Below the pieces are notes generated by a model. That model did not search any database. It saw only the letters and a list, made by a program, of their open reading frames with translations, and was not told where the DNA came from. Positions 2,032-59,683 of a stretch of DNA of 64,000 nucleotides are shown one piece after another; position 1 is the stretch's first letter; every line of letters starts with the position of its first letter. Source of the DNA: Rhodospirillales bacterium (GTDB taxonomy: Bacteria > Pseudomonadota > Alphaproteobacteria > CACIAM-22H2); contig JAEUKY010000332.1 of NCBI GenBank assembly GCA_016794005.1, forward strand, positions 5,029 to 69,028. The letters run 5' to 3'. A program made the position numbers and the translations under genes.

Positions 2032-2034
2032 AGC

Positions 2035-3270: not shown

Positions 3271-3402
3271 CTGACGAAATTTCCGCTCGGTAGGAATGGC
3301 GGCGGATGCTAGTGGAGGGCATTCCCGCCGTCCAGTCGTGCTTTGTCAGTAATCCCGACAGCGTGTAAGAACGGTGAGTCTATCCCTTTTCCGGTTCGGT
3401 CC

Positions 3403-14274: not shown

Positions 14275-14278
14275 CGCG

Positions 14279-36409: not shown

Positions 36410-37153
36410 ATGCTGAACGCACTGCGGAACATGATCCGGGCGGCGCTTCCGAAGGTCACGGTGACCGTTCGCCAGCCTGACCGGAATTTCATCAAGCGAT
36501 ATGTCTGCGCCAAGATCCGCCCGGACGGGATAATGGTCGATATCGGCGCCGGCACGGGCACAGGCCCGGAAAGCTTCATCGCGGAAACCGGCCTCTCGCC
36601 GGCGAACTGCGTGTTGATAGAGGCGTGCCCGAGCAATTTCGTGCATCTGGCGGAACGCTGCGGTGGGGCACGGCTGCTTAACGTGGCGATTTCCGACCGC
36701 GACGGGACGGTCCCGTTCCATGTCGCCGACGACCCGAAATGGGAAGGCTCGTCGAAGTCGAACACGATCGTCGACGGCGTCATGGATGCGAAGTACGCAG
36801 GCCGGACGCGGACGATCGAGGTGCCCTCGGTGTCGCTCGCATCGCTCTTTGCGCAGCAGAACCTCGATCAGGTCGAGCTGCTAATGATCAATTGCGAGGG
36901 TGCCGAGTACTTCATCTTCCGCAACGGCATCGACTGCCTCGCGAACACGCGTTTCGTCTGGCTCGAGTTCCACGGCTATTCGCGCGCCTTGAACAGGTTC
37001 ATCGACGAAAAGCGGCGGATTTTCGACCTTTTCGAAGCGGCGGGCTTCACGCGCGTCGCGGGCATGCGGCGCGAAGACATCGCCGATTCGTTCGTGCACA
37101 CAATGGTTCTGTTTGAACGTCTCGGTACAGTCGCCGCCGGCAAGGCCGCCTGA
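36410..37153 (+). CDS. FkbM family methyltransferase
   Basis: MVDIGAGTGTG, NVAISDRDGTVPFHV and LMINCEGAEYFIF are typical FkbM-family blocks. Confidence 0.7.
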   Translation: MLNALRNMIRAALPKVTVTVRQPDRNFIKRYVCAKIRPDGIMVDIGAGTGTGPESFIAETGLSPANCVLIEACPSNFVHLAERCGGARLLNVAISDRDGTVPFHVADDPKWEGSSKSNTIVDGVMDAKYAGRTRTIEVPSVSLASLFAQQNLDQVELLMINCEGAEYFIFRNGIDCLANTRFVWLEFHGYSRALNRFIDEKRRIFDLFEAAGFTRVAGMRREDIADSFVHTMVLFERLGTVAAGKAA

Positions 37154-37161
37154 CGGGAGGC

Positions 37162-38103
37162 ATGGACATGCTTGCTCAGATAAAAAGCCTTGCAGGCGAT
37201 TGGCTCCAGATGCGCGCCATCCGGACGCACGGCTCGCGCGTGGGCTGGAAGATTGCCGGACGCTACACTGACTATTGGAAGAAGGCACAGCGCGATTGTC
37301 CGCGTGCGATGCCGGTCAATCCGGTCATCCGTACCGCAGTCGAACGTTTCCGTGCCGATCGCGTCATGTCCTACCACCTTCCCGAAGCGGCAGGAATCGC
37401 CCGCCGTATCGCACGCAAGCTCGACGAGCGCGAGGCTGCCGGCGAGCGCCTCTGGATCGATCGCGTCGATCTCAACAGCAACGCCAACTACGCCGGCGAC
37501 CTTTGGCTGGACTTTCCCGAGGTGAAGGAAATCCTGCAGGGTCCGCTCGGGCCGTTTCTCGAAGGCTACTTCGGCTCGGCCTACAAGATCTTCTTCGCGA
37601 CGATGTATCTCTCGGTGCACGAGCCGGCCGGCCCCAAAACATCGTCACTTTGGCATTCCGACAGCGGCCCCGGCACCTGCGTCAACGTCATGTTCCACAT
37701 CGACGATACAGTGATCGAGGACGGCACGACCGAAGTGCTTCCCTGGGGCAGCGCTCTTGAGATCTTCGCGCGCGAGCGCCCCGAGATACGCCGAAGGGCG
37801 GCCCGCGAGGGGCGCGAGCTCACCGGAGACTTCCGGCGCGAGTTGCAGTACCGCTGGTACGACGAGGTCATCTCGCAGCTTTATGCCGACCGAATCGTGC
37901 AGGCGACCGGACCCGCGGGCCTGATTTCGGCATTCGCGAACAATACAATCCACCGCGGCGGCTATCCGCAGCCCGGTCACCGCCGCCGCGTCATTATCTT
38001 CCATGCCTATCCGTCGGACCGGCCGACCAACTGGGCTCTTTACGACGAACGCGGCATCAAGAAATCCGGATCGTATCCAGCCGATCCTGCCGCCGAGTTC
38101 TGA
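37162..38103 (+). CDS. Putative Fe(II)/2-oxoglutarate-dependent dioxygenase (PhyH-like)
   Basis: LWHSDSG (H-x-D at 37654-37662) and a distal NNTIHRGGYP (His/Arg) match the facial-triad spacing of PhyH-type oxygenases. Motif-level inference only. Confidence 0.45.
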   Translation: MDMLAQIKSLAGDWLQMRAIRTHGSRVGWKIAGRYTDYWKKAQRDCPRAMPVNPVIRTAVERFRADRVMSYHLPEAAGIARRIARKLDEREAAGERLWIDRVDLNSNANYAGDLWLDFPEVKEILQGPLGPFLEGYFGSAYKIFFATMYLSVHEPAGPKTSSLWHSDSGPGTCVNVMFHIDDTVIEDGTTEVLPWGSALEIFARERPEIRRRAAREGRELTGDFRRELQYRWYDEVISQLYADRIVQATGPAGLISAFANNTIHRGGYPQPGHRRRVIIFHAYPSDRPTNWALYDERGIKKSGSYPADPAAEF

Positions 38104-38105
38104 AA

Positions 38106-38881
38106 ATGCGCAAAATCTTCAACGCGATCGTCCTGCATCTGGCGAAGGCGATATTCTCGCCCGCCGCACCTGCCGTACCGGTACCGTCGCCGTTGCGTTA
38201 TCTCGTCTCCCAGCGCCGGATATTCGATCTCGTGTCGCTCGTCATGCAGGTGCGCTGGCTCGGCGGCGTGCGCCAGCTCGCCACTGCCGAGCCCGGCAGC
38301 GATCCTCATCTCGCGGCCGTACACAACTACAATGCCGGCGTCACCGCCGGAAAAATCATCACGTCGACGCGGCGGCCCGAAACGATCTATCGGATCGCGG
38401 GCCTGCTCGCCCGTCCGCTCGGGCGCGACCGACTGCTGATCGTCGGCCCGCGCAACGTTCAGGAACTTCTCGTCGCCTGGATCCACGGCTTCGCATGGCG
38501 GAACGTCGAGGCGATAGATCTCTATTCGACGCACCCGCGGATCCGCACGATGGACATGCACCGGCTTGAGTATCCGGACGGTTCGTTTGGCGTCGTGACG
38601 ATGGTCAACACGCTCGGATATGCGAGCGACATCCCTGCGGTCGTCGCGGGTGTGGCGCGCATACTTTCGCCTGGCGGACGGTTCTGCTTCAGTCATGCGC
38701 ACGTGCCGCAAAGCGATACGTTCGCCGGTGACCTCGTCCCCATCAAAACCGTCCTGAACGCGTGCCGACAGGCGGGCCTTCGGACCTACTTCCACCAGAT
38801 AGAAGACAAGACCAACAGCCGCGGCCTCCGGCAGTTGTCCCACTATGTCGGCGTAGAAAAGGCAACGGAGGCGACGATCTC

Positions 38882-38885
<4 letters not shown>
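38106..38885 (+). CDS. Putative SAM-dependent methyltransferase (degenerate class I)
   Basis: LLIVGPRNVQEL, YPDGSFGVVTMVNTLGY and ILSPGGRFCF resemble motifs I and post-I-III of type-11 methyltransferases. Motif I is atypical. Confidence 0.45.
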
Positions 38886-40735
<1,850 letters not shown>

Positions 40736-40749
40736 GGAAAGGGCTCTCC

Positions 40750-41766
40750 ATGCTTGAAAAATTTGAGATCGGTGGCCGCGAGGTAGGTGGAAACGCACCG
40801 CTGCTGTTCATCGCCGAAGCCGGCGTGAGCCACTTCGGCGACATGGACCTTGCCGAGCAGCTCGTCGACCTCGCAGCCGACGCGGGTGCCGACGTATTCA
40901 AGACCCAGTTCTTCGACGTTGATATGCTGTTCGCGAAGTCCGCGTCGGCGTGGCGCGACCGGCTGCGCCCGCGCAATCTGACCTTCGATCAGGCCCGTGC
41001 ACTCAAGGATCGCTGCGACCGTCGCGGCATTCTATTCATGTCGACGGCACACGACGAAAGCCGGCTGCGCTGGCTTGCGGATCTCGACGTCCCGGCAATA
41101 AAGGTCGGCTCGGGCGAACGCAACAATACCGGCTTTCTCGAGAAGCTAGCTCGTCTGGGCAAGCCGATGATCGTTTCGACCGGGATGTATCGCGAGGCCG
41201 ACGTCGTCGAGGCGGTCGAGGCCTGCCGTCGTGGCGGATGCGAGCGCGTGGCGCTGCTCCATTGCGTGACGAGCTACCCCGCTCCGGCGGCCGACATCAA
41301 CCTGCGCGCGATGGACCGGATGCGGCAGATCTTTCCCGGCCCGGTCGGTTATTCCGACCATACGGAAGACCATCTTGCGGTACATGCCGCGGCCGCACGC
41401 GGCGCCAAGATCATCGAGAAGCACATCACGATCCTGCGCAACGTGCCCAACGCCCAGGACTGGAAGGTCTCCGCCGGACCCGAGGATCTCGCCAAACTCG
41501 TCGCCGATCTGCGCAGAGTCGAAGCTCTTCTAGGCTCGGGCCGCAAGGAACCTGCGGCGAGCGAGGCGGCGGGCCAGGACTGGGCGCTGAAGGCTCTCGT
41601 CGCCCGACGCAACCTGCCAGCGGGCCACGTCGTCGAAGAAGCCGATATTGTTGCCAAGCGGCCCTCACGCGGCATTCCGCCCAATCGCATCGCCGAAGTG
41701 ATCGGCAAGCGGCTGCCGGCAGCGCTTGCCGCCGACGACCCCTTGCCTGAAGCGTTGATCGGCTGA
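40750..41766 (+). CDS. neuB: NeuB-family nonulosonic acid synthase (N-acetylneuraminate/legionaminate synthase-like)
   Basis: LFIAEAGVSHFGDMDLAEQLVDLAADAGADVFKTQ, IKVGSGE, LLHCVTSYPAPAADINLRAM and a C-terminal SAF-like domain are present. This is a second paralog besides pseI. Confidence 0.8.
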   Translation: MLEKFEIGGREVGGNAPLLFIAEAGVSHFGDMDLAEQLVDLAADAGADVFKTQFFDVDMLFAKSASAWRDRLRPRNLTFDQARALKDRCDRRGILFMSTAHDESRLRWLADLDVPAIKVGSGERNNTGFLEKLARLGKPMIVSTGMYREADVVEAVEACRRGGCERVALLHCVTSYPAPAADINLRAMDRMRQIFPGPVGYSDHTEDHLAVHAAAARGAKIIEKHITILRNVPNAQDWKVSAGPEDLAKLVADLRRVEALLGSGRKEPAASEAAGQDWALKALVARRNLPAGHVVEEADIVAKRPSRGIPPNRIAEVIGKRLPAALAADDPLPEALIG

Positions 41767-41771
41767 CGACG

Positions 41772-42926
41772 ATGCGGAAGGTCGCCATCGCGCTGACAAC
41801 GCGCGGAAACTACGGGAAGATGCTGTCGACGATGCGCGCGATCCGCGCGCGGCCGGATCTCGAACTGCGTCTGATCGTCGGTGGCGGCATCCTGCGCAAT
41901 TCCTTCGGCGATTTCGTGCCGGTCGTGGAAGCGGACGGATTCAAGGTCGATCGCAAGGTTGATTATCTCGAAGGCATGTCCGGCGACGCCGATACGATGC
42001 TGCGCTCGGCCGCGCGTGCGGTTGATGGATTCGGGGCCGTACTGGCGGAACTCGCCCCCGACGTCGTTGTCGTCATCGCCGATCGTTACGAAGCCCTGTC
42101 GATCGCTTTCGCGGCGACATGCCGTTCGATCCCGATCGCGCATCTGGAGGGCGGCGAGATGTCCGGCTCGATTGACGACCGGATCCGGCACGCGATTACG
42201 ATGCTCGCGCAGATCCACCTGCCCGCAAGCCGGTCGGCAGCCGCGCGTCTCGTCGCGATGGGTGAGCGGCGCGAGAGCGTCCATCTCGTGGGCTCGCCGT
42301 CGTTCGATATCATCGGGGCCCTCGACCTTGCCGATCTAGCGCCGCTCGACGCCTTTCAGGCGGTCAACGGCAGTGGGCCGGCGATCGACCATCGCGCGCC
42401 CTTCGTTCTCGTGAGCCAGCACCCCGTGGTCGAGGAAGAAGCACAGGCCGAAGCTCAGACCGTCGAGACGGCTGCCGCCGTGGCGGCGGTCGGCCTGCCG
42501 GTCGTTTGGGTGCAGCCCAACATGGATGCAGGCAGTGTAGGCGTGCGCCGCGCGCTCGCGCGCAGTGCCGCACTTCCCGGTGCGCCGCCGATGCATGTCT
42601 ACGCCTCGCTGCCGCTACCGCTTTATGCGCGCGCGATGAAGGCCTGCCGCTGCATGCTCGGCAACAGTTCAAGCGGAATCCGCGAAGCGGCGTTTCTCGG
42701 TGTGCCGGTCGTGAACGTCGGCACGCGCCAGCGCGGGCGCGAACGTGGTCGCAATGTCGTCGATGTCGGCTATGTCCGCTCCGAGATGGAGGCGGCGATC
42801 CGCCGCCAGCTCGCGCACGGAGCCTACGCGCCCGACGATCTCTATGGCAACGGCCGTTCGGGCGAGCGCATCGCCGAGGTACTCGCAAGCGCACCGCTCG
42901 AACTCGCCAAATGGGGTGCGACGTGA
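41772..42926 (+). CDS. neuC: UDP-N-acetylglucosamine 2-epimerase (hydrolysing), NeuC/LegG type
   Basis: VAIALTTRGNYGKM, VVVIADRYEALS and IAHLEGGEMSGSIDDRIRHAITMLAQIHL are present. Confidence 0.85.
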   Translation: MRKVAIALTTRGNYGKMLSTMRAIRARPDLELRLIVGGGILRNSFGDFVPVVEADGFKVDRKVDYLEGMSGDADTMLRSAARAVDGFGAVLAELAPDVVVVIADRYEALSIAFAATCRSIPIAHLEGGEMSGSIDDRIRHAITMLAQIHLPASRSAAARLVAMGERRESVHLVGSPSFDIIGALDLADLAPLDAFQAVNGSGPAIDHRAPFVLVSQHPVVEEEAQAEAQTVETAAAVAAVGLPVVWVQPNMDAGSVGVRRALARSAALPGAPPMHVYASLPLPLYARAMKACRCMLGNSSSGIREAAFLGVPVVNVGTRQRGRERGRNVVDVGYVRSEMEAAIRRQLAHGAYAPDDLYGNGRSGERIAEVLASAPLELAKWGAT

Positions 42927-43627
42927 GTGCCACCAGATTCCTGGCGATCGTACCCGCGCGCGGCGGGTCGAAGGGCGTGCCGAGAAAGAACCTGCGTATG
43001 GTCGGCGGACGTAGTCTTCTCGCGCGTGCGATCGGGGCCGTACGCGAATCCAGTGCCGCGGACGCAATCGTCGTATCGACGGACGACATCGAGATTGCCG
43101 CCGCAGCACGCACGGCGGGCGCACAGGTCCCGTTCATGCGTTCCGCCGACCTCGCAAGCGACACTGCGACGACGACCGATGTCGTCCGCCATGCGCTTGC
43201 GCAGTGGACGCAGACGACCGGTGCGCCGCCCGAGTGGTTCGTGCTTGCCGAACCAACGAACCCATTCCGGCGGCCGACGACGGTCGCTGCAGCGGTCGCG
43301 CGCGCGCGGGCAGGTGGTGTAGCCAGCGTCATCGCCGTGTGCCCGCTCGAACGCAAGCCGCAGTACATCTTCGCCAAGACGGGTGGCCTCCTTGAGCGCT
43401 ACGTCAAGGAACCTTCCGAGGAATTCGAGCGACGTCAGGATATGGTGCATCTGTGCCGCCTGTCGAACGTCGTCTGGGTCGTCCGGACGGCCGATTTCCT
43501 AGTGCACGGCAAGCTGCTGCTGCCACCGGTCGGATATGTCGAAGTCGACGCCATCGAGGCAATCAACATTGACGATCCTGTCGATCTCGATTTTGCAGAT
43601 TTCCTCGCGCGCCGCGACGGCGCGTGA
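42923..43627 (+). CDS. neuA: Acylneuraminate (CMP-nonulosonate) cytidylyltransferase, NeuA/LegF/PseF family
   Basis: The GTG start overlaps the upstream TGA. LAIVPARGGSKGVPRKNL is the family N-terminal signature, followed by TDD and EPTNPFR. Confidence 0.8.
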   Translation: MSATRFLAIVPARGGSKGVPRKNLRMVGGRSLLARAIGAVRESSAADAIVVSTDDIEIAAAARTAGAQVPFMRSADLASDTATTTDVVRHALAQWTQTTGAPPEWFVLAEPTNPFRRPTTVAAAVARARAGGVASVIAVCPLERKPQYIFAKTGGLLERYVKEPSEEFERRQDMVHLCRLSNVVWVVRTADFLVHGKLLLPPVGYVEVDAIEAINIDDPVDLDFADFLARRDGA

Positions 43628-44700
43628 CTCCAACCCCGCTGGGAGCCCGGAAAGACATGCGCACGAAGTATTTCGAATCCCGTAACGTGCCCGTGAAGCT
43701 CGACTACGACGATGTCTATCTTGGACCGCAGCGCGATCCGGACGGCGTGGTACGCGATCCCTATGCTGAGCGCACCCGCAAGCTCGAGGATCTCGCGCAG
43801 GAAATTGCCTTCGTCAATTCGCTGCCGCCCGGACGGATCCTCGACGTTGGCTGCGGTCTCGGCTTCTTCCTCTCCGGCGTCGTGGCGGACTGGGAAAAGC
43901 ATGGACAGGAAGTCTCGAAGCCCTGCACCGATTATGCGGCGCAGTTCTGCAACACGTTCCGCGGCACGCTTGAGGAGGCGCGCTATCCGGACGACCATTT
44001 CGACGTCGTTGTCTCGATGTCGGTCGTCGAGCACATTCCTGATCCGATGCCGACGATGCGCGAGATGTGGCGCGTCCTGAAGCCGGGTGGCAAGCTGGTC
44101 CTGCGCACGCCGAATTTCGATAGCGGCGTGGCACGCCGGTTCGGCGAACGCTATCGGCTCCTGCAGACGCCTGGCCACGTGACGCTGTTCTCGGATACGT
44201 CGCTCCGGGCGGCCCTGCACGACATCGGTTTCACGGTCGATCGCTGCGAATACCCGTTCTTCGAGACGCGGCATTTCACGATGGAGAATTTTGGCCGGTT
44301 GTTCGATACCTCCAAGGTCAGTCCGGCGTTCTACGGGAACCACATGTGCTTCTATGCGACCAAGCCCCAGACACCTGGACCGGTGGCCTGGGGGCGGCCG
44401 CTGCTGGCCGCGCTCGACGAATGGCTCGGCGTGAATGCTACCGCCATCGAAGCGGCTGCGCGCGCAATTGTCGTGGCGAAGGGCCCGAAAGCAGAGGCGA
44501 TGATGCCGGCGCTTGCGGCACGTGCGGCCGAACTCGCGTCGGCGGCGGGCGGTGGAGCGGGAGCCGGTGCGCCTGCGCGTCTGTCGGCCGGGCGCATCGA
44601 CATCCCGGGGACCGCCACGCTTGAACCGCCCGGCGGCGAAGCCGGGTTCGATTTCGCGCTTGCCGCGCTGCGCGCGGCCTGTGCGGCCGTCCGTGTCTGA
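43624..44700 (+). CDS. Class I SAM-dependent methyltransferase with an Ala/Gly-rich C-terminal extension
   Basis: ILDVGCGLGFF, FDVVVSMSVVEHIPDP and LKPGGKLVLRTPN are present. GTG 43624 overlaps the upstream TGA, and ATG 43657 is an alternative start. Confidence 0.75.
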   Translation: MTPTPLGARKDMRTKYFESRNVPVKLDYDDVYLGPQRDPDGVVRDPYAERTRKLEDLAQEIAFVNSLPPGRILDVGCGLGFFLSGVVADWEKHGQEVSKPCTDYAAQFCNTFRGTLEEARYPDDHFDVVVSMSVVEHIPDPMPTMREMWRVLKPGGKLVLRTPNFDSGVARRFGERYRLLQTPGHVTLFSDTSLRAALHDIGFTVDRCEYPFFETRHFTMENFGRLFDTSKVSPAFYGNHMCFYATKPQTPGPVAWGRPLLAALDEWLGVNATAIEAAARAIVVAKGPKAEAMMPALAARAAELASAAGGGAGAGAPARLSAGRIDIPGTATLEPPGGEAGFDFALAALRAACAAVRV

Positions 44701-44748
44701 GGCCCGACTGCGGAAACAACGGAACAGATCAGAGACTGGAGACAAGAC

Positions 44749-45909
44749 ATGCGCGTGATGATCCTCGGCGGCGACGGCTATCTCGGTTGGCCCACGGCAA
44801 TGCATTTCTCGGCACGTGGCGACGATGTCTATGTCGTCGACAACTTCGCCAAGCGCCAGTGGGAAATGGAGTCGGGCATCGAGCCTCTGCTTCCGATCCC
44901 GCCGCTGCACCGTCGCGTGCGCGCTTGGAAAGAGGTAACAGGCAAGGATATCAGGATTGAGGTTGGTGACCTGTGTAATCACCGCTTCGTCTACATGCTC
45001 ATCGAGCGCTACCGTCCCGAGACGATAATACATTACGGTGAGCAGCCTTCCGCGCCCTATTCGATGCAGTCGCGCACTACGGCAGTCTATTCGCAGGTCA
45101 ACAACGTCGTCGGAAACCTCAACGTCCTCTTCGCGATGAAGCGCTTCGCACCCGAAGCACATCTCGTGAAGCTCGGCACAATGGGCGAGTACGGCACGCC
45201 GAACATCGATATCGAGGAAGGCTGGATCGAGATCGAGCACAATGGCCGCAAGGACCGCATGCTCTATCCCAAGAAGCCCGGCAGCTTCTATCACCTGTCG
45301 AAGGTACACGATTCGGCGAACGTCGAGTTCGCGTGCCGCATCTGGGGCTTCCGCGCCACCGATCTCAACCAGGGCGTGGTCTATGGTATCGACACCGACC
45401 AGACCGTCCAGGGGCCGGACCTGCGCACGTCGTTCCATTACGATGACGTCTTCGGAACCGTGCTGAATCGCTTCCTCGTTCAGGCGGCCGTCGGCGAAAA
45501 GCTGACGGTGTACGGCAAGGGCGGGCAGACGCGCGGATTCCTCAACATCCGCGACACGATCGCCTGCGTGGCGCTGGCGGCCGACAATCCCGCGAAGGCC
45601 GGCGAGTTCCGGGTGTTCAATCAGTTCACCGAACAGTTCTCGGTGCGCGAACTCGCCGACAAGGTCGCCGCGGCCGGCCGGCGTGCGGGTCTCGACACGC
45701 AGATCACTTCGCTACCCAATCCGCGCGTCGAGATGGAGGAGCACTACTACAATGCCAAGCACACGGCCCTGCTCGATCTCGGACTCAAGCCGCACCTGCT
45801 GACGGACGAAGCGCTCGACAAGATGCTCGCCGTCGTCCGCGCGAACTGCGGCCATGTCGAGAAATCGAGCTTCATCCCGCGCATCCGCTGGGACGCCGCC
45901 AAGAAGTAG
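44749..45909 (+). CDS. sqdB: UDP-sulfoquinovose synthase (SQD1/SqdB)
   Basis: Long stretches match the SQD1 pattern: ILGGDGYLGWPTA, HYGEQPSAPYSM, LVKLGTMGEYGTPNIDIEEGW, SFYHLSKVHDS, RATDLNQGVVYG, TVYGKGGQTRGFLNIRDT, EFRVFNQFTEQFSV and NPRVEMEEHYYNAKHT. Confidence 0.9.
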   Translation: MRVMILGGDGYLGWPTAMHFSARGDDVYVVDNFAKRQWEMESGIEPLLPIPPLHRRVRAWKEVTGKDIRIEVGDLCNHRFVYMLIERYRPETIIHYGEQPSAPYSMQSRTTAVYSQVNNVVGNLNVLFAMKRFAPEAHLVKLGTMGEYGTPNIDIEEGWIEIEHNGRKDRMLYPKKPGSFYHLSKVHDSANVEFACRIWGFRATDLNQGVVYGIDTDQTVQGPDLRTSFHYDDVFGTVLNRFLVQAAVGEKLTVYGKGGQTRGFLNIRDTIACVALAADNPAKAGEFRVFNQFTEQFSVRELADKVAAAGRRAGLDTQITSLPNPRVEMEEHYYNAKHTALLDLGLKPHLLTDEALDKMLAVVRANCGHVEKSSFIPRIRWDAAKK

Positions 45910-45914
45910 AGCCG

Positions 45915-47330
45915 ATGACCGAAGGTATCGACGCGCCACCGCTCAAGCGGCGGCCCAAGGCGCTCGTCTTCATCGACTACGACGCTCTGGTCCGCCATTT
46001 TGTGATGAGCGGCGCGTTCGTCGATCTCGAGAAGGCGTTCGACGTCACATATATCGCGCACGACGACCCGGGGCAGCTGAAGAAGGGGCTGACGGTCAAC
46101 CTGCGTGAATTCGGCTGCGCTCGCGTGCGAACCTGCGTCGTTTCACGCCAGCGCATGGGCCTCTGGTATTTTCTCTACATCGTCAATGTGCTCCGCCAGC
46201 ACCGGGGAACCTCCGCCTACGGCCATCGCCGGATGCTGGCCGTTGATCAGGTCGGTGAACGGCGCGTACGCCAGTTTGAGCTTCTTGGTATGCCGGTGAT
46301 TTTCCACCTGTTCCGAGCCGCCTTCATGGCGTGGATGGGCGTCGATGCGGCAGTGGCGCAGCTGCTCGACGAAGAACGTCCGGACGTGGTGGTGCAGCCG
46401 TCGTTCCTGACGGGACCGTTCGTCAACGAGCTCCTGCGTGCAACGCGCGTGCGCGGGATTCCCTACCTGCTGCTGATGAACAGTTGGGACAATCCGGCCG
46501 TGAAGGCCGTGGCGACGGGCGACCCGGACCGTCTCGTCGTCTGGGGCGAGCAGTCGCGACGCCAAGCGATCGAGTACATGGGCGTCGATCCTGCACGGAT
46601 CGTCGCATTCGGCGCTGCGCAGTTCGACGTTTACCGCACGCCGCCGCGCGAGACGCGTGTCGATCTGGCGGCGGAATTCGGCGTGCCCATGGATCGGACG
46701 ATCGTCCTCTATGCGGGATCGGGCGCCGGCTGGCACGAGAGCGCCTATCTCGAGCAGCTCGATGCGATGACCGTTCCCGGCGGCGTCCTCGAGAATTGCC
46801 ACATTCTCTATCGCCCGCATCCGTGGCGCGGCCCGCTCGGGGCCGGCGAGCGCGACTTCTTTGAGATGGGTTTGCGCAACGTGACGATGGACCCGAACAT
46901 GAAGGAGCACTATCTGCGCCAGATCCGCGAGATCGGCGGCCGCGGCATGTATCTCGCCGACTATTCGATCACGAACCGGCTCCTGACGCTCGTCGAAGCG
47001 GTGATTTCGCCACTGTCGACGATCCTGCTGGAAGCGGCGATGAAGGGCCGGCCGCTCCTGATCTTCGCTCCCCCGCGCGACCTGAAGCTCGACGTCGACA
47101 AGAACCAGCCTCATTTCCGCGATTTCGTGACATGGCCCGAGATCAATCGCTGTTTCAACGACGACAGTTTTGAGGACGCGTGCGCATCGCTTCGCCGCCA
47201 GATCGGCGATCCCCGGATCGCTTCAGCGCTGCGCGAGCGCTCGCGCGACTTCGTGGTTTGCGACGGTCCGACCTATTCAGAGCGTTTGGCGGCCGAGGCG
47301 ATGGCTCTCGTCGCGGAGCGGGCGGCATGA
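45915..47330 (+). CDS. Hypothetical protein; third putative HP-motif GT-B-like transferase
   Basis: 471 aa. ILYRPHPWRGPLG (RPHP at 46812-46823) is followed by VISPLSTILLEAAMKGRPLLIFAP. An N-terminal Rossmann-like beta strand (ALVFIDYDAL) is present. I recognised no closer family. Confidence 0.35.
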   Translation: MTEGIDAPPLKRRPKALVFIDYDALVRHFVMSGAFVDLEKAFDVTYIAHDDPGQLKKGLTVNLREFGCARVRTCVVSRQRMGLWYFLYIVNVLRQHRGTSAYGHRRMLAVDQVGERRVRQFELLGMPVIFHLFRAAFMAWMGVDAAVAQLLDEERPDVVVQPSFLTGPFVNELLRATRVRGIPYLLLMNSWDNPAVKAVATGDPDRLVVWGEQSRRQAIEYMGVDPARIVAFGAAQFDVYRTPPRETRVDLAAEFGVPMDRTIVLYAGSGAGWHESAYLEQLDAMTVPGGVLENCHILYRPHPWRGPLGAGERDFFEMGLRNVTMDPNMKEHYLRQIREIGGRGMYLADYSITNRLLTLVEAVISPLSTILLEAAMKGRPLLIFAPPRDLKLDVDKNQPHFRDFVTWPEINRCFNDDSFEDACASLRRQIGDPRIASALRERSRDFVVCDGPTYSERLAAEAMALVAERAA

Positions 47331-48481
47331 CCGGACTTCGCCACCTCTTCCTCTATCCCGGCGAGAGTCGGCGTCGACGGCTCGCCGAGCTCGATAGCGG
47401 TGCGGTTCCGCGCGATTTCTTCTACGGCTATCTGGCACTTGAAGCTGCCGGCCGCACCTGCGAGATCGGCGACACGCGGACCAATCCGCGTGGCCTGCTC
47501 GCGCGGATGGAACTGCGTTGGGAACAGCTGCGTAACCGCTTTCTCGTCTTCGGCATGACTCGCCAGCGCGTGCGTGCCCTAGAGCCGGTCTTCGCGCGCG
47601 CCGACATCGCGCTGAGTTTCACCGACGCGTTCAGCCTGTCGATGGGCTACTGGCGGCCGCGGAGTGGATCGTATCTCGCCGGCGGCTTCCACGGTCTCGC
47701 CGACGTGCATATGCGTGCCCGACCCTGGGCGCGCCCATTGATCCGCCGGCTCATCGGTCGAGCGCTGCACGGTCTCGACCATATGTTTTTCTTCGGTGAC
47801 GTCGATCGCCGCCAGGCGATCGAAATGTACGACCTCGACGCGGCGAAGACGTCGCTATTCCTGTTCGGTGTTGACACAGATTTCTGGATCCCGCCCGAGG
47901 CCATCACGGAAGAACCGCTGGTGTTCGCCGTGGGCTCCGATCCACAGCGCGACTACGCGACGCTCGTGGCGGCGCCTACGGCGGCGAAGATGCGCATCCT
48001 GACGAGCTTGCCGGTCGACGTCCCCGCCGACGGGCGCGTCGAACTCGTGCGCGGCAACCTGTACGGCTCGCCGATTACTGATCTTGTTCTGCGCGATCTC
48101 TACCGTTCGGCCGCGGTCGTTGCCGTTCCGCTCCACGACGTCTACCAGCCCAGCGGCTATTCCGTGACCCTGCAGGCCATGGCCTGCGGCCGCCCGGTCG
48201 TGCTGACGCGCAACCGCGGCCTTTGGGACCCGGAGGTCTTCCGTTCGGGCGAGAACTGCCTGCTCGTACCACCCGGCGATCCTGCGGCGTTCGGTGCGGC
48301 GATCGAGCGCCTGATGGCAGATTCGGCCCTTCGTCGCAGGATTGGCGAAGCCGCGCGTGCGGATGCCGTCCGTCATTTCGGCCTGGCGCGGATGGACCGC
48401 GCAATTTTGGCGCTCGCCGACCGCCTGGCCGCAGAGAAAGCCGCATCGATGCGCGGCCAGCCCCGGGAACAAACGAAATGA
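47327..48481 (+). CDS. GT-B glycosyltransferase (GT1/GT4-like)
   Basis: The start overlaps the upstream stop (ATGA). VFAVGSDPQRDY, VVAVPLHDVYQPSGYSVTLQAMACGRPVVLT and LLVPPGDPAAFGAAI give the C-terminal GT-B nucleotide-sugar domain pattern, with Gln replacing Glu in the E-x7-E region. Confidence 0.65.
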   Translation: MTGLRHLFLYPGESRRRRLAELDSGAVPRDFFYGYLALEAAGRTCEIGDTRTNPRGLLARMELRWEQLRNRFLVFGMTRQRVRALEPVFARADIALSFTDAFSLSMGYWRPRSGSYLAGGFHGLADVHMRARPWARPLIRRLIGRALHGLDHMFFFGDVDRRQAIEMYDLDAAKTSLFLFGVDTDFWIPPEAITEEPLVFAVGSDPQRDYATLVAAPTAAKMRILTSLPVDVPADGRVELVRGNLYGSPITDLVLRDLYRSAAVVAVPLHDVYQPSGYSVTLQAMACGRPVVLTRNRGLWDPEVFRSGENCLLVPPGDPAAFGAAIERLMADSALRRRIGEAARADAVRHFGLARMDRAILALADRLAAEKAASMRGQPREQTK

Positions 48482-49251
48482 TCCGACGACTCGCCGCTCT
48501 CCTTCCTCCCGCACTGCGCGAAGAGCTGCGCACTCTGGTGCGCGGCCCGCGCAAGGAAGGCGAAGAATGGCTGCCCTACCGCACCGCGCTGTTCGACGAG
48601 CTTGTCGCACTGGCGGGTGCGGGGCATTTTGCCGGCAAACGGATCCTCGAGATCGGTCCGCGGGACGGGCTTGACTCGCGCAGGCTGGCGGGGCTCAGGC
48701 CCGCGGAACTCGTGATGCTGGATTTACCCGAAAAGGGAACGGTCAACCGGGAATGGCTCGCCGGTATCGACTGCCCGAAGCGCTATATCGAGGCGAACTA
48801 CCTCTACATGGAAGCGCCCGCCCGCGCGGCTCTCGGACGTTTCGATCTCGTGTGGTTTACCGGCGTGCTCTATCACAATGCCGAGCAACTCCGGATGTTG
48901 CGCCTGCTGTTCCGCCAGCTCGTGCCGGACGGATGGCTGGTGCTCGAAAGCTCGACGCTACGCGGGCCCAAGGCGCTGCGGGACGGCGCTTTCGTCCAGA
49001 TCCACTGGCCGCAGACCTTCCGCGATACCGGGACGATCACGCATCTGCCCAGTGCGGGTGCGGTCCGAGCGTGGCTCGACATGGCCGGCTTCGGCCCGAT
49101 CCACGATAGCAGCTGCTTCCGCAAAACGAATCCCGAACTCGTCGGTCTGCGCTATGCGGCGATCGCGTGGCGTGGGGCCGACGATGCGGGTGGCGCCTAC
49201 TACGCCAAGAGCGGATTGAATCCGGATTACCGACTCGGCGACGCGACTTGA
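48478..49251 (+). CDS. SAM-dependent methyltransferase-like protein (CmoB/DUF1698-like)
   Basis: The start overlaps the upstream stop (ATGA). ILEIGPRDGLDS, FDLVWFTGVLYHNAEQ and LVPDGWLVLES are present. Confidence 0.55.
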   Translation: MIRRLAALLPPALREELRTLVRGPRKEGEEWLPYRTALFDELVALAGAGHFAGKRILEIGPRDGLDSRRLAGLRPAELVMLDLPEKGTVNREWLAGIDCPKRYIEANYLYMEAPARAALGRFDLVWFTGVLYHNAEQLRMLRLLFRQLVPDGWLVLESSTLRGPKALRDGAFVQIHWPQTFRDTGTITHLPSAGAVRAWLDMAGFGPIHDSSCFRKTNPELVGLRYAAIAWRGADDAGGAYYAKSGLNPDYRLGDAT

Positions 49252-49267
49252 CTGCAGGACAGCAGAA

Positions 49268-50296
49268 ATGAAAGTCGCACTCGGCCATCGACTGATGGAA
49301 GGGCCGTGGGGCGGGGGCAACATGTTCGCCCACGCGCTCGCCGACGGGCTCGAGCGTGCCGGGCATGCGGTGCGTTTCGATCTTGCCGACCGCGACATCG
49401 ACGCGATCGTGCTGACCGACCCGCGGTGGCGCAATCCAGCGTCTGCCTTCGGGCCGGGTGCCATCCTGCGGTATCTCTGGCTGCGCAATCCCGACGCGAT
49501 CGTCATCCACCGAATCAACGAATGTGATCTGCGCAAGGGTACGCGGCATGTCGACGCGATGCTGGCGCGCGCGAACTACTGCGCCGACGTAACCGCGTTT
49601 GTCGGCAAATGGCTGACCGAACTACCCGTCTGGCGCGCGAACCGGCGTACGCCTTTCAAGATCCTGCGCAACGGCGCCGACGACGCGATGTTCAATGGTT
49701 CCGGCCAGATTCCGTGGGACGGCACGGGCCCGTTGCGACTCGTGACGCACCACTGGGGCTTCAACGCGATGAAGGGCTTCGACGTCTATTCGGCGATCGA
49801 TGCGCTTCTCGACGCGCCCGAGTGGCGCGCGCGGCTTGCCTTCACTTACGTCGGCAATCTGCCTGCCGGTTTCCGCTTCCGCAATGCATCCTACGTGCCG
49901 CCACTGTCCGGCAAGGCGCTTGCCGACGAACTGCGGCGGCACCATGCCTACGTCACCGCGTCGCAGTTCGAACCCGGCGGCAACCACCAGAACGAGGGGG
50001 CCTGCTGCGGCCTGCCGCTTCTCTACCGCAATAGCGGCTGCCTTCCGGAGTACTGCGCGGGCTTCGGCGAGGTGTTCGACGGCCCGGGTGACTTCGTCGC
50101 GGCGTTCGGGCGGCTGACAGCAGGCTACGCGGCCGCGCACGCGAAGATGCCCGCCTATCCGTGGACCGCACGTCGGATGTGCACGGACTGGCTAGCTGCT
50201 TTCGACGAGATTCTGGCCCGCCGCCGCGAGATTGTCGCCGCGCGTCGCCTGTGGCGTTCGCCCGCGGCCTTCCTTCGCGCGCAAGTGGCGGCGTGA
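49268..50296 (+). CDS. GT-B glycosyltransferase (GT4-like)
   Basis: VTASQFEPGGNHQNEGACCGLPLL contains an E-x7-E motif. The N-terminus MKVALGHRLMEGPWGGGNMF is typical of GT4-like N-domains. Confidence 0.65.
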   Translation: MKVALGHRLMEGPWGGGNMFAHALADGLERAGHAVRFDLADRDIDAIVLTDPRWRNPASAFGPGAILRYLWLRNPDAIVIHRINECDLRKGTRHVDAMLARANYCADVTAFVGKWLTELPVWRANRRTPFKILRNGADDAMFNGSGQIPWDGTGPLRLVTHHWGFNAMKGFDVYSAIDALLDAPEWRARLAFTYVGNLPAGFRFRNASYVPPLSGKALADELRRHHAYVTASQFEPGGNHQNEGACCGLPLLYRNSGCLPEYCAGFGEVFDGPGDFVAAFGRLTAGYAAAHAKMPAYPWTARRMCTDWLAAFDEILARRREIVAARRLWRSPAAFLRAQVAA

Positions 50297-51393
50297 AAGC
50301 GCTTCTTCGCGAATGCGGGCGTACGCTGCTCGCGCAGGCCGGACGCCTGCCGGGTCTGCGGCTGTCGCCCTGTCCAGTGACGTTCGTCGTCGAGCGCAAC
50401 GACTGGTCCATCCGCTGGGACGGCCTCTACATCACGCGTGGGATCGAAGCGCTGAGGCCTGGCACGGCGCGCATCTCGGAGAGCCCGTGGCGGAGTGCCG
50501 GACCAGTCGTGCATTTCGGTTCCCACTTCTTGTGGAACGCGTGGAGCGCCCATCTCCCGATCGGGCCCGCCTATGTCGTGACCTACTTCCACGGAAAGCC
50601 GGACGACGGTCCGGACGCGGCGCGCGACGTCGAAGCCTTCCTTGCGCGCCTGGATCGGGTCGCCTGCGTCGTGACGGCGGCCTCGCTCATGGAGCGACGT
50701 CTCGTCGAATGGGGCGTTCCGAAGGAACGCGTCGTGCGGATACCGATCGGGGTCGACACGCGCCACTTTGTGCCAGCAGATGTCGCACGACGGGCTGCCG
50801 CGCGCGAGTCCTTCGGCATCCCAGATGACGCGATCGCGGTCGGTTCCTTCCAGAAGGACGGCGTGGGCTGGGGCGATGGGAACGAGCCCAAGCTCATCAA
50901 GGGGCCGGACATCTTCGTGGCGGCGATGGCGGCGCTGCGCGCACGCGGCTTGCCGGTGATGGCGCTGTTGACGGGGCCTGCGCGCGGCTACGTCAAGGCC
51001 GGACTCGCGGCGGCCGGCGTCCCATTTCGCCATGTCTTCCTTGACGACTATATGAAGATCGCGGACGCCTACGCGGCACTCGACCTCTATCTGATGACCT
51101 CGCGGGAGGAAGGCGGACCCAAGGCGATCCCGGAAAGCTTCGCCTCCGGCGTTCCGATCGTCGCGGCGGATTGCGGCATGGCATCCGACATGATCCGCGA
51201 TGGCGTCAACGGTGCCCTCGTGCCGGTCGGCGATGTCGGGGCATTCGTGGCGCGGGCGGCCGATGCGCTGGCGAATCCGGCGCATGCGCGCGCATGGACC
51301 GTCGCCGCGCACGCAGACATCGCGGCCTACGACTGGTCGGCTATCTCTGTAGCCCACTGGGAGAAAATCTACTCACCGCTGCTGCGTGGCTGA
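50293..51393 (+). CDS. Glycosyltransferase family 4
   Basis: The GTG start overlaps the upstream TGA. LMTSREEGGPKAIPESFASGVPIVA (E-x7-E) and NGALVPVGD are present. Confidence 0.8.
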   Translation: MKALLRECGRTLLAQAGRLPGLRLSPCPVTFVVERNDWSIRWDGLYITRGIEALRPGTARISESPWRSAGPVVHFGSHFLWNAWSAHLPIGPAYVVTYFHGKPDDGPDAARDVEAFLARLDRVACVVTAASLMERRLVEWGVPKERVVRIPIGVDTRHFVPADVARRAAARESFGIPDDAIAVGSFQKDGVGWGDGNEPKLIKGPDIFVAAMAALRARGLPVMALLTGPARGYVKAGLAAAGVPFRHVFLDDYMKIADAYAALDLYLMTSREEGGPKAIPESFASGVPIVAADCGMASDMIRDGVNGALVPVGDVGAFVARAADALANPAHARAWTVAAHADIAAYDWSAISVAHWEKIYSPLLRG

Positions 51394-52398
51394 CTAGCCG
51401 TGAAGCGGACGTCTGTCCTCTTCGGGTAAACCGCGGAACCAGTCGGTCATCCGGACGAGCCCGTCCCGAAGACCGATTTTCGGCGCCACTTCGCCGATGA
51501 TAGAACGTAGGCGAGTCGAATTTGCCGATTTTACGAAACGCCCTTCGGGCCTCGTCGTGTCGAACACGGTACGCACATTTGCGCCGGTTGCCGCGAGGAT
51601 CGCCGTGACAAGATCGGCCATCGAGATGGTGTCCTCGAAGCCGACATTGACGGTCTGGCCGGCAGCATTTGCCTCCACCAGACGGCGCAGGATCGTCGCG
51701 CAGTCCTTGGCGTGCATGTAGTTACGCCGCTGTCGTCCGCTACCCCAGATGACGACCGGATCCATACCGCTCATGACCTTGTGGACGAGCATCGGAATCG
51801 CCTGACTATTGGTACCGCGCCAGCGATAGCGCTCGCCATAGATGTTGACCGGTCGCGCGATCGCGACCGGCACGCCGGCGACCTGCGAAAGCATCGTGAA
51901 CTTGGTTTCCATGAAGCGCTTCGCCCAGCCATACCCGCTGTTCACGCGCTCCGGCTCGCCGTCATAGACCGGCAATTCGGGAAACGTGTCCGGCCCATCG
52001 TCACGATGCACGCAGGATGACGAAACGGTCAGCACGAACTCCGGCGGTCGGGCGGCCAGGGCTTCAACCATGTTGTTCGTCACGCGCTCGTTGTGCAGGC
52101 ATATCTCCAGATGGCGCTTTGCGCCATAGCCGACGCCGAAAGCGCGGCTGGCCAAGTGGAATACGATCTGCGCGCCGTCGAGGCAACGCGCGGCCACGCC
52201 GGGCGCTTCAAGATCGCCCTCGCGCAATTCGATCCGTCCCGAGACCGCGGCGAGATGCGCCGGCGATCCGGTCGAAAAATCGTCCACGACGACGACTCGC
52301 GCGTCGAGAGCCAGCAGATCTTCGACCAGAAACGACCCAATCAAGCCGGCACCGCCGGTGACGGCTACGGTCTTGCCGCCCAAACTGAGCATCGACAT
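51394..52398 (-). CDS. NAD-dependent epimerase/dehydratase (extended SDR)
   Basis: The start is placed at MSMLSL, preceded by AAGGAA. VAVTGGAGLIGSFLV (Rossmann) and SGYGWAKRF (YxxxK) are present. The stop abuts the convergent GT4 stop with zero intergenic nt. Confidence 0.8.
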   Translation of the reverse strand: MSMLSLGGKTVAVTGGAGLIGSFLVEDLLALDARVVVVDDFSTGSPAHLAAVSGRIELREGDLEAPGVAARCLDGAQIVFHLASRAFGVGYGAKRHLEICLHNERVTNNMVEALAARPPEFVLTVSSSCVHRDDGPDTFPELPVYDGEPERVNSGYGWAKRFMETKFTMLSQVAGVPVAIARPVNIYGERYRWRGTNSQAIPMLVHKVMSGMDPVVIWGSGRQRRNYMHAKDCATILRRLVEANAAGQTVNVGFEDTISMADLVTAILAATGANVRTVFDTTRPEGRFVKSANSTRLRSIIGEVAPKIGLRDGLVRMTDWFRGLPEEDRRPLHG

Positions 52399-52536
52399 GG
52401 GTTCCTTCGGCCGCGTGCGTACGTGCGGCAATGTGCAACGAAACCTGCGAATAACGGCGCCTGTAGCTTGCGTCAAGTCCTACTTGACCAATCGTCCGCC
52501 GTGGTCGAATAAACGGGTCGTCCGGCTTCGCCGGCA

Positions 52537-58813: not shown

Positions 58814-58966
58814 CGGTCGGCGAGGTCGAAATCTCTATTTTTCTCAAGATTTTCAGATACTTAGAAGAATATTCGGCTCATTATAGCGACGGGCAGGCGG
58901 AAAGCCATCTGATAAATGCCGTGCGGCGGTGCTGCGGGCATTCATCCGCCGGAACCAACCTGCTAT

Positions 58967-59680
58967 ATGGACACCCGATTCACACGACTTGCCGGACCGC
59001 CCGAATTGCAGCTTCCCCTTCGCCTTTCACCGTCGATCCTGGCGGCCGATTTCGCCGATCTCGGCAACGAGGTCCGGGCGATTTCGGCGGCGGGCGCGGA
59101 TTACATCCACGTCGACGTGATGGATGGGCATTTCGTTCCGAATCTGACCATCGGGCCGGCCGTCGTCAGGGCCCTGCGGCCGCACACCGACAGGCCGTTC
59201 GACGTGCATCTGATGATCTCGCCTGTCGATCCCTATGTCGCGGCCTTCGCCGAAGCCGGTGCGGACATCATCACCGTGCATCCGGAAGCGGGGCCGCACG
59301 TGCATCGCACGCTGCAGCTCGTGCGCGGCCTCGGCAAGCGCGCGGGGATCGCGATCAATCCGGGCACGCCGGTCGAGTCCGTTTTCCCGCTGCTGCCCGA
59401 CGCTGATCTCGTCCTCGTCATGTCCGTCAATCCGGGCTTCGGCGGGCAAGGCTTCATTCCGGGCGCGCTCGACAAGATCGCCGCCCTGCGCGCGCGCATC
59501 GACGCCCTCTGCGCCGGAACGGAGCGGCGCATCGATCTCGAGGTCGACGGCGGCATCAATCCGCAGACCGCCGCGCGCGTGCGCGCGGCCGGCGCCGACG
59601 TCCTCGTCGCGGGAACGGCCGCGTTCGCGGGCGGGCGCCCGCGCTACGAAGCCAATCTGCGCGCGCTGCGCGGGGCCTAG
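58967..59680 (+). CDS. rpe: Ribulose-phosphate 3-epimerase
   Basis: SPSILAADFADLGNEV...GADYIHVDVMDGHFVPNLTIGP, VHLM, MSVNPGFGGQGF and EVDGGIN are present. The start is trimmed to MDTRF (58967). Confidence 0.9.
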   Translation: MDTRFTRLAGPPELQLPLRLSPSILAADFADLGNEVRAISAAGADYIHVDVMDGHFVPNLTIGPAVVRALRPHTDRPFDVHLMISPVDPYVAAFAEAGADIITVHPEAGPHVHRTLQLVRGLGKRAGIAINPGTPVESVFPLLPDADLVLVMSVNPGFGGQGFIPGALDKIAALRARIDALCAGTERRIDLEVDGGINPQTAARVRAAGADVLVAGTAAFAGGRPRYEANLRALRGA

Positions 59681-59683
59681 CAG

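Follow-up and report, generated by a model that had tools for sequence, protein, structure and literature searches.

An SqdB-type sulfosugar synthase clade linked to nonulosonic-acid genes in bacteria and phages

A gene of the SQD1/SqdB family was analysed in a stretch of 64,000 nucleotides from the metagenome-assembled genome of a Rhodospirillales bacterium (GenBank contig JAEUKY010000332.1, positions 5,029 to 69,028), referred to below as the window. This gene (SqdB, positions 44749-45909, + strand) encodes an NAD-dependent enzyme predicted to be a uridine diphosphate (UDP)-6-deoxy-6-sulfo-hexose synthase and belongs to a clade of the family that is linked to nonulosonic-acid genes. The conserved cassette coupling SqdB with the genes NeuB, NeuC and NeuA is the main finding, and with SqdB embedded in it another fate of the sulfosugar becomes the most likely one. 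We read the cassette, tentatively and with slightly less than even confidence, as a single pathway to a cytidine monophosphate (CMP)-activated 9-deoxy-9-sulfo-nonulosonic acid.

The open reading frame (ORF) extends over 386 aa from an ATG start through its stop codon, with a GGAGA ribosome-binding site 8 nt 5' of the start and a third-codon-position GC content (GC3) of 0.82, in the range of coding sequence in this window (65% GC). Arabidopsis SQD1 (1qrr, 1i24) was its best PDB match (phmmer E 4e-157, 527 bits), SqdB residues 2-382 aligning with residues 3-383 of the SQD1 chain with zero gaps and 59% identity. The NCBIfam model NF041015 'UDP-sulfoquinovose synthase' was matched end to end (E 1e-134), at a score of 449 bits that did not reach the curated cut-off of 575. 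The GxxGxxG motif for NAD is present as GGDGYLG, and both catalytic motifs, TMGEY (in GTMGEYG) and YHxxK (in FYHLSK), are kept; the family signature is [ST]MG...Yx3K with a His after the Tyr, corresponding to T145, M146, Y182, H183 and K186 of SQD1 (PMC8987622, PMC4388408). A previous reading made from the sequence only had named a UDP-sulfoquinovose synthase here, which the match to SQD1 and the intact catalytic motifs bear out. The active-site Arg101 of SQD1 and Agl3 was not kept, the window SqdB having Pro100 (in EQPSAPYS) at this position, and the Agl3 mutant R101A is inactive (PMC4388408). Pro was found at this position in the whole window clade and in part of the other bacterial SqdB clades; as it is also common in Actinomycetota SqdB adjoining genes of glycosyltransferase (GT) family 2, it was dropped as a clade marker. 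The clade signature comprised K35, N77, S228 and H230 alongside P100, of which K35, S228 and H230 were retained as the usable signature. Among the 120 protein clusters (90% identity) nearest to the window SqdB in a large database, at least 116 had the signature. Judged from its sequence, the ORF is a genuine sulfoquinovose-synthase-type enzyme on a separate branch, and this family call is sound, the exact substrate being a prediction.

SqdB is the ninth of 14 genes of a + strand operon (36410-51393) with intergenic gaps of -4 to +48 nt, and sits between a cytidylyltransferase/methyltransferase pair and ORF 45915. The same operon encodes a NeuB-family nonulosonic acid synthase of 338 aa (40750-41766; PF03102, 6.8e-67) with a SAF domain (PF08666), a NeuC-type hydrolysing UDP-sugar 2-epimerase (41772-42926; TIGR03568, 334 bits, above the cut-off of 236; PF02350, 6.7e-65) and a CMP-nonulosonic acid synthetase, NeuA (42923-43627; PF02348, 7e-20), whose GTG start overlaps the NeuC stop and whose best NCBIfam match, PseF, was under its cut-off (112 bits). 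The window NeuB scored 296 bits on TIGR03569 (cut-off 400) and 206 on TIGR03586/PseI (cut-off 340) and thus fits neither the N-acetylneuraminic acid (Neu5Ac) nor the pseudaminic acid equivalog. The equivalent of Arg314 of N. meningitidis NeuB is present in it, as KRP, and the enzyme is predicted to condense phosphoenolpyruvate (PEP) with a free 2-acetamido hexose. NeuB is preceded by an MsbA/PglK-type ABC exporter with fused permease and ATPase (38882-40735; PF00005 and PF00664), the start of which was set at 38882 because of a 4-nt overlap with the preceding stop. Its best NCBIfam matches were MsbA, PglK and HepA, each under cut-off, and homologues lie immediately 5' of NeuB in loci L001, L002, L083, L084, L085, L165 and the P0009 contig. 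This protein may serve as the flippase or exporter of a lipid-linked glycan. An S-adenosylmethionine (SAM)-dependent methyltransferase (43624-44700; PF13489, 3e-24) stands between NeuA and SqdB, in a slot that holds a 2-hydroxyacid dehydrogenase or nothing in most related loci. The neighbours that the sequence-only reading had listed, i.e. methyltransferases (43624, 48478), the HP-motif GT-B protein 45915 and two GT4 enzymes (47327, 50293), were all confirmed, and its placement of SqdB in a polysaccharide or surface-glycan locus is supported. Its enzyme, its glycan setting and its missing sulfolipid partner thus stood, while the ABC exporter, NeuB, NeuC and NeuA upstream had escaped it.

The linkage to nonulosonic-acid genes was specific to one clade of SqdB. 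A genome scan with one genome per species returned 80 loci, and sequences at least 62-65% identical to the window SqdB, which form one clade in a neighbour-joining tree, were taken as the window clade. NeuB, NeuC or NeuA was found within 10 kb of SqdB in 17 of the 19 loci of this clade and in none of the 63 loci of other clades (Actinomycetota, Chloroflexota, Acidobacteriota), a distribution with a Fisher p of 1e-15 among 82 genomic relatives, many of these loci being from related Alphaproteobacteria. Hosts of the clade were Alphaproteobacteria, Rhodocyclaceae, Hyphomicrobiales, one Saccharibacteria genome and one Gaiellaceae genome, and the cassette was also found in the isolate genomes of Thalassospira lohafexi and Magnetovibrio sp. 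PR-2. In three closely related loci (79-88% identity), the group ABC-NeuB-NeuC-(2-hydroxyacid dehydrogenase)-NeuA occurs together with SqdB and a 470-aa protein, in varying order. The partners of SqdB were of other kinds elsewhere: a membrane GT2 and a GtrA-like protein in Actinomycetota, which look like a polyprenyl-phosphate sugar synthase set, and a GT21-like enzyme, a PMT_2 protein and an asparagine synthase in Acidobacteriota. These partners suggest that sulfoquinovose may have uses other than sulfoquinovosyl diacylglycerol (SQDG) in those phyla too; among loci of other clades (L022-L082), the expected GT4 was seen beside SqdB only in Chloroflexota.

The reciprocal search gave a matching distribution. 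The window NeuB as query returned 79 metagenome loci, among which relatives at least 44% identical and with informative flanks were counted (n=40). SqdB of the same clade was near NeuB in 29 of them, and another seven had a more divergent SqdB-like gene (46-53% identity) in which GTMGEYG and YHxxK are conserved, i.e. an SqdB-type gene in 36 of 40; one of the remaining four had another short-chain dehydrogenase/reductase (SDR) and three were without SqdB. The divergent lineage, in which YHLSK is replaced by YHTTK or YHWSK, usually lies directly 5' of NeuB (L141, L144, L145, L148, L151, L103 and L108). The commonest order was NeuB-NeuC-2-hydroxyacid dehydrogenase-NeuA-SqdB, followed by a KpsS-like protein or a homologue of ORF 45915. 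Similar loci without SqdB (L084, L085, L162) carry a NeuB just 25-33% identical to that of the window. A basic residue following the catalytic Glu134 of NeuB was considered as a marker of sulfonate binding and found not to be diagnostic: Arg or Lys occupies this position in 36 of 49 SqdB-linked NeuB sequences, but Arg was seen in the SqdB-less loci L093, L094 and L104 too, and other lineages linked to SqdB have Val, Leu or Ser there.

SqdB adjoins the cassette genes in varied orders. In the window operon the order is NeuA-SqdB-p471 (p471 being ORF 45915), if the methyltransferase at 43624 is passed over; it is SqdB-NeuA in L016, and SqdB immediately adjoins NeuB in L128, L137 and L140. A block from an uncultured bacterium (L012, 41% GC) consists of a TagF-like GT, NeuC, a phosphoadenosine phosphosulfate (PAPS) reductase, SqdB, an SDR, NeuA, NeuB and a Wzy_C/tetratricopeptide-repeat protein. 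The Saccharibacteria locus (L013) has the order NeuC-methyltransferase-NeuA-PAPS reductase-SqdB-NeuB, and directly alongside a second cassette, NeuC-methyltransferase-NeuA-NeuB, without the PAPS reductase-SqdB insert. Two nonulosonic-acid cassettes per locus were also found in L126 and L165, as they were in L012, and the SqdB-side NeuC and NeuB of L012 and L013 are orthologous (42-46% identity). The PAPS reductase (PF01507, 1.7e-44) adjoins SqdB in both L012 and L013, two loci of candidate-phylum type, where it is a likely source of sulfite, which argues for a real use of sulfite.

The cassette was also carried by phages. Among viral contigs, 12 relatives of SqdB were found, seven of them from one phage family (L167-L170, L174, L177, L178). 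The clade signature is present in all seven, whereas three viral SqdB that have the canonical signature lack a NeuB nearby. The order in the phage family is NeuC, 2-hydroxyacid dehydrogenase, NeuA, SqdB and a NeuB without SAF domain, and the genes overlap one another in L170. Helix-turn-helix and small early genes precede the cassette, and genes of nucleotide metabolism and replication follow it (ribonucleotide reductase, PD-(D/E)XK nuclease, AAA_24, DUF669, ParB/methylase and uracil-DNA glycosylase/DNA polymerase A). No glycosyltransferase was detected beside the phage cassette. The sugar made could decorate the host surface, the virion or even DNA.

The protein encoded directly 3' of SqdB, p471 (45915-47330, + strand), is 100% identical to 'hypothetical protein JNL71_16235'; its family is small (239 matches) and consists of proteins annotated as 'hypothetical'. 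Its confident AlphaFold2 model (pLDDT 92.9) displays a GT-B fold with two Rossmann-like domains. Foldseek gave only generic GT-B matches, such as MshA, TagF, WecB and UDP-GlcNAc 2-epimerases (TM 0.45-0.54); the structure pointed to no specific transferase family, no sialyltransferase was among the top 50 matches, and Pfam matches were all below threshold (PF13439, PF13579, PF04464). The residues R300-P301-H302-P303 were invariant in a 53-sequence alignment, and GT-B enzymes whose donors are CMP- or CDP-linked typically have an HP motif at this position. Whether a locus has SqdB (L083, L165) or lacks it (L084, L085), homologues of p471 adjoin NeuB or NeuA, and the family therefore follows the nonulosonic acid and not the sulfosugar. 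On these grounds p471 is a candidate CMP-nonulosonic acid transferase, probably acting in this role and not as a sulfolipid synthase, and the proposal of the sequence-only reading that it forms a novel SQDG synthase is disfavoured. The start of the next gene, a GT4 glycosyltransferase (GT4a, 47327-48481; PF13692 and PF00534), overlaps the p471 stop. A natural fusion of a p471-type GT-B with a GT4 related to GT4a (29% identity over 355 aa) was found in P0239 (L085, 10001-12460). NeuC and SqdB are missing from that locus, which otherwise encodes a cupin-fused NeuB along with a HAD phosphatase and NeuA; the SqdB-less locus L084 has a GT4a homologue with 44% identity over the C-terminal domain. 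Overlap, fusion and presence in L084 suggest a paired transferase, in which GT4a would be a candidate hexosyl or sulfoquinovosyl transferase; in the latter case its acceptor is possibly a glycan rather than diacylglycerol.

The proposed single pathway would start with SqdB, which would oxidise C4 of a UDP-hexose, eliminate water across C5-C6, add sulfite at C6 and re-reduce C4. The resulting UDP-6-deoxy-6-sulfo sugar would be made upstream of NeuC, from UDP-GlcNAc if NeuC and NeuB keep their requirement for a 2-acetamido group and from UDP-glucose otherwise. NeuC would then remove UDP with inversion of C2, NeuB would condense the free sulfosugar with PEP, and NeuA, the cytidylyltransferase, would activate the 9-deoxy-9-sulfo-nonulosonic acid (9-deoxy-9-sulfo-Neu5Ac or 9-deoxy-9-sulfo-Kdn). 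The GT4 enzymes would build a glycan with many methyl groups, to which p471 would transfer this acid, and the ABC protein would flip or export the glycan. We infer the identity of the substrate, the hand-over to NeuC and the roles of p471 and the ABC protein; the enzyme family with its catalytic motifs, the structure of the operon and the clade-specific linkage are direct observations. The set NeuC-(2-hydroxyacid dehydrogenase)-NeuA-SqdB-NeuB may then make, at a probability we place somewhat below one half, a previously undescribed class of sugars, nonulosonic acids with a carbon-sulfur bond at C9, and its makers would be Alphaproteobacteria, Rhodocyclaceae, Gaiellaceae, Saccharibacteria and one phage family. 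A single pathway best explains the interleaved gene orders, the nearly SqdB-exclusive NeuB lineage, the pair of cassettes in L013 and the phage cassette. The position of SqdB within the operon, the PAPS reductase next to it in L012 and L013, the tracking of NeuB/NeuA by the p471 family and the failure of the window NeuB to fit either equivalog also count in its favour.

Several observations weigh against this pathway. Two members of the clade (L006, L020) have no NeuB or NeuC nearby, and three close NeuB relatives (L093, L094, L104) have no SqdB within reach; L104 retains NeuB-NeuC-dehydrogenase-NeuA, with a thiamine pyrophosphate (TPP) enzyme (14099-15733) at the SqdB slot. The Arg314 equivalent retained in the window NeuB is associated with an N-acetyl substrate, so that the pathway probably needs an SqdB that accepts UDP-GlcNAc, and the gapless 59% identity to plant SQD1 favours UDP-glucose as substrate. 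NeuC-type enzymes are known only for 2-acetamido sugars. Comparison of NeuB sequences gave no residue diagnostic for sulfonate binding, and no report of a sulfonated nonulosonic acid was found in the literature searched. The pair p471-GT4a resembles a two-activity transferase making an alternating hexose/nonulosonic-acid glycan, which would give UDP-sulfoquinovose a direct, and simpler, role as donor. The support for the pathway comes from genomic context and sequence.

Such a direct role is the main alternative, fairly likely though less so than the single pathway. UDP-sulfoquinovose would be the product, GT4a or the second GT4 (50293) would put sulfoquinovose itself into the surface glycan, and NeuB, NeuC and NeuA would separately supply a normal nonulosonic acid added by p471; the linkage would then reflect a glycan motif that always contains both sugars, e.g. 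an alternating sulfoquinovose/nonulosonic-acid polymer like the rhizobial hexose-Kdx K-antigens. This is chemically more conventional, and it agrees with the gapless identity to SQD1 and the presence of all catalytic motifs. The known sulfoquinovosyl transferases SQD2 and SqdX are GT4 members, and GT4a-like genes lie directly 3' of SqdB in L139 and L147. The overlap of GT4a with p471 and the fusion of both families in P0239, as in two-domain capsule polymerases, point the same way, as do the KpsS-like genes and many methyltransferases, which are found in K-antigen loci as well, and L104, which shows that a NeuB-NeuC-NeuA module can occur without SqdB. The archaeal Agl3 also provides a precedent for sulfoquinovose in a glycan (PMC4388408). 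However, no glycosyltransferase family accompanies SqdB across phyla: GT4a is limited to an alphaproteobacterial subset and occurs in SqdB-less loci too, and no transferase was detected adjoining SqdB in the phage cassette or in the L012 and L013 blocks. This NeuB lineage, moreover, is hardly ever found without SqdB.

Other fates of the product are all improbable. UDP-sulfoquinovose could be destined for SQDG or a similar lipid, its classical bacterial fate (PMC13436972), with GT4a, the GT4 at 50293, a GT2 at 55200 or an sqdX or sqdD elsewhere as transferase, the location in the island being incidental. Since sqdB and sqdX are unlinked in some cyanobacteria (PMC13436972), the absence of sqdX from the window is no proof for the whole genome. 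Within the window, no SqdD, SqdC or SqdX partner of SqdB was found: a scan of about 60 ORFs gave no GT8 (SqdD-type) domain, which counts against a sulfolipid, and the GT4 proteins matched a stand-in SqdX only remotely and over part of their length (E 1e-6 to 1e-7), the stand-in being the GT4 that adjoins SqdB in Chloroflexaceae loci, used in place of a verified SqdX reference. To this extent the lack of a canonical sulfolipid partner reported by the sequence-only reading holds. A sulfolipid would also leave the NeuB/NeuC linkage in three independent collections unexplained, and the occurrence of the clade in Saccharibacteria and phages speaks against it, making this fate very unlikely. No better chances are given to a different chemistry, in which SqdB would add no sulfite in vivo and act as a 5,6-dehydratase yielding a UDP-hexose-5,6-ene, or use another nucleophile, its product feeding an unsaturated or otherwise C9-modified nonulosonic acid. 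Agl3 does yield UDP-glucose-5,6-ene without sulfite (PMC4388408, PMC8987622), and the Arg101 essential in Agl3 is Pro throughout the clade; yet this Pro is shared by many SqdB of other clades, the other catalytic residues are all conserved, and a PAPS reductase stands beside SqdB in L012 and L013. It is more improbable still that the genes have no functional link and owe their proximity to inherited synteny or to hitch-hiking in mobile glycan islands. Such islands are mosaic, an integrase flanks that of T. lohafexi, and the linkage counts are not independent, many loci being from related Alphaproteobacteria; but the linkage survives rearranged gene orders in distant phyla and phages, and the second, divergent SqdB-like lineage shows linkage to NeuB too.

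The operon begins with an FkbM-type methyltransferase (36410-37153; PF05050, E 1.8e-11), with a syntenic homologue in L001 and a gap of 8 nt to the next gene, a conserved 313-aa protein without Pfam match (37162-38103) that has homologues at the same position in L001 and L003. A SAM-dependent methyltransferase (38106-38885; PF08241) then precedes the ABC exporter. Downstream of GT4a come another SAM-dependent methyltransferase (48478-49251; PF13489 and PF08003), a conserved 342-aa protein without Pfam match (49268-50296; homologues in L001, L002, L005, L084 and L085, that of L084 being weakly GT4-like through a weak PF13692) and, as last gene, the second GT4 glycosyltransferase (GT4b, 50293-51393; PF13692, 9e-19, and PF00534). 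An extended SDR epimerase/reductase follows on the - strand (51394-52476; PF01370, 2e-39), far under the cut-offs for GDP-fucose synthase, LegB and GalE; its homologues adjoin SqdB or p471 in L012, L115, L165 and the P0009 contig. This SDR could be a 4-epimerase leading to a galacto-configured (sulfofucose-type) sulfosugar. A TPP-dependent enzyme (13369-14934) lies beside a 2-hydroxyacid dehydrogenase in the similar nonulosonic-acid locus L084, and the TPP-dependent enzymes of L104 and L084 may represent an alternative route of modification. In Magnetovibrio sp. PR-2 (L083), the region upstream of the cassette (1-5000) encodes an AMP-ligase/acetyltransferase fusion, a PALP enzyme, a split TPP decarboxylase with a layout like that of sulfopyruvate or phosphonopyruvate decarboxylase, and an aldehyde dehydrogenase, and a sulfotransferase (14757-15602) is located 3' of it; these flanking genes hint at more sulfonate or sulfate decorations of the same glycan.

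The wider window is one large envelope-glycan island, framed by outer-membrane and lipopolysaccharide functions: two Wzy_C (O-antigen ligase/polymerase-like) proteins at its left end (99-3270) and LptD with a heparinase II/III-like protein at its right end (56621-61318). A separate pseudaminic-acid-type pathway is encoded on the + strand between 9073 and 23556, with a PseC-like aminotransferase (9073), a PseB-like dehydratase (10209), cytidylyltransferases (12430, 20500), a radical SAM/SPASM protein (13180), a KpsS-like protein (14279), GFO/IDH oxidoreductases, PseI (19475; 499 bits against a TIGR03586 cut-off of 340) and a second aminotransferase (22123). About 2 kb (24164-26300) contain no ORF of the usual GC3 bias and could be a degraded or foreign segment; the longest ORF of this stretch (24164-26041, 625 aa) had no NCBIfam match. 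Between 27755 and 35484 lie a WbuX-type N-acetyl sugar amidotransferase (328 bits, above cut-off), a formyltransferase-like gene, a methyltransferase, an asparagine-synthase-like amidotransferase and, on the minus strand, a PMT_2-type GT-C, a combination that hints at sugars in acetamidino or amidated form and at transfer in a lipid-linked step. The whole window holds two asparagine-synthase-like genes, Wzy_C proteins and one GT2. An island for flagellin glycosylation was considered and dropped, as the window has no flagellar genes; Wzy_C, the PMT_2-type GT-C, the ABC exporter and LptD argue for an envelope glycan instead.

The coupling of SqdB with nonulosonic-acid genes was not described in the literature searched; an archaeal genome paper has both sqdB and neuB but handles them separately. 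A review of 2026 covers SqdB only in the SqdB-SqdX sulfolipid scheme, and the literature takes sulfoquinovose synthases to mark sulfolipid synthesis and the sulfoquinovose branch of the sulfur cycle (e.g. PMC13436972). A viral UDP-sulfoquinovose synthase has one earlier mention, as an auxiliary gene. Since the SqdB clade linked to nonulosonic-acid genes is large and spans distant lineages, many sqdB matches in metagenomes may be misread as sulfolipid genes. Known sulfosugars are sulfoquinovose and sulfofucose, the latter type having no known biosynthetic route. Both the single pathway and the direct transfer of sulfoquinovose would be new for bacteria as far as the literature searches show, the latter as the first bacterial surface glycan with sulfoquinovose. 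The single pathway, if true, would extend the sialic-acid family by a C-sulfonated member whose second negative charge is permanent; it would probably be resistant to sulfatases and might resist sialidases, with a bearing on phage receptors, immune mimicry and surface charge, and would form a new sink for sulfite. As T. lohafexi and Magnetovibrio sp. PR-2 carry the cassette in isolate genomes, the question is directly testable.

Compared with known systems, the window SqdB shares fold, length, NAD site, TMGEY and YHxxK with SQD1/SqdB of the SQDG pathway (plants, cyanobacteria, Rhodobacter, Sinorhizobium) and differs from them by its distinct clade, by Pro in place of Arg101 and by a NeuB/NeuC/NeuA cassette in place of SqdD, SqdC or SqdX. 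Agl3 of Sulfolobus acidocaldarius is likewise of the SQD1 family, and its product enters an N-glycan and not a lipid (PMC4388408). Unlike Agl3, the window enzyme is bacterial and has Pro for the essential Arg, and a link to nonulosonic-acid genes is undescribed for the archaeal protein. The adjacent p471 and GT4a and their fused relative P0239 recall the two-activity capsule polymerases and the rhizobial hexose-Kdx K-antigen, as do the KpsS-like genes, the ABC exporter and the many methyltransferases of the window and related loci; in contrast to those systems, p471 matches no solved sialyltransferase or Kdo transferase specifically, no two-component exporter of KpsM/KpsT type was seen, and polymer formation is a conjecture here. 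Legionaminic acid is made by the SDR dehydratase LegB, LegC/LegH, the NeuC-like LegG, the NeuB-like LegI and LegF. The window SDR differs from that scheme in being an SQD1-type sulfite adder and not a plain 4,6-dehydratase (LegB, just 19.5 bits), the cassette has no aminotransferase or N-acetyltransferase, and its predicted product is a C9-sulfonate whereas legionaminic acid is 9-deoxy. The proposed logic would nevertheless be the same: an SDR alters C6, a NeuC-type enzyme releases and epimerises the sugar, and condensation with PEP by a NeuB-type enzyme precedes activation by a cytidylyltransferase.

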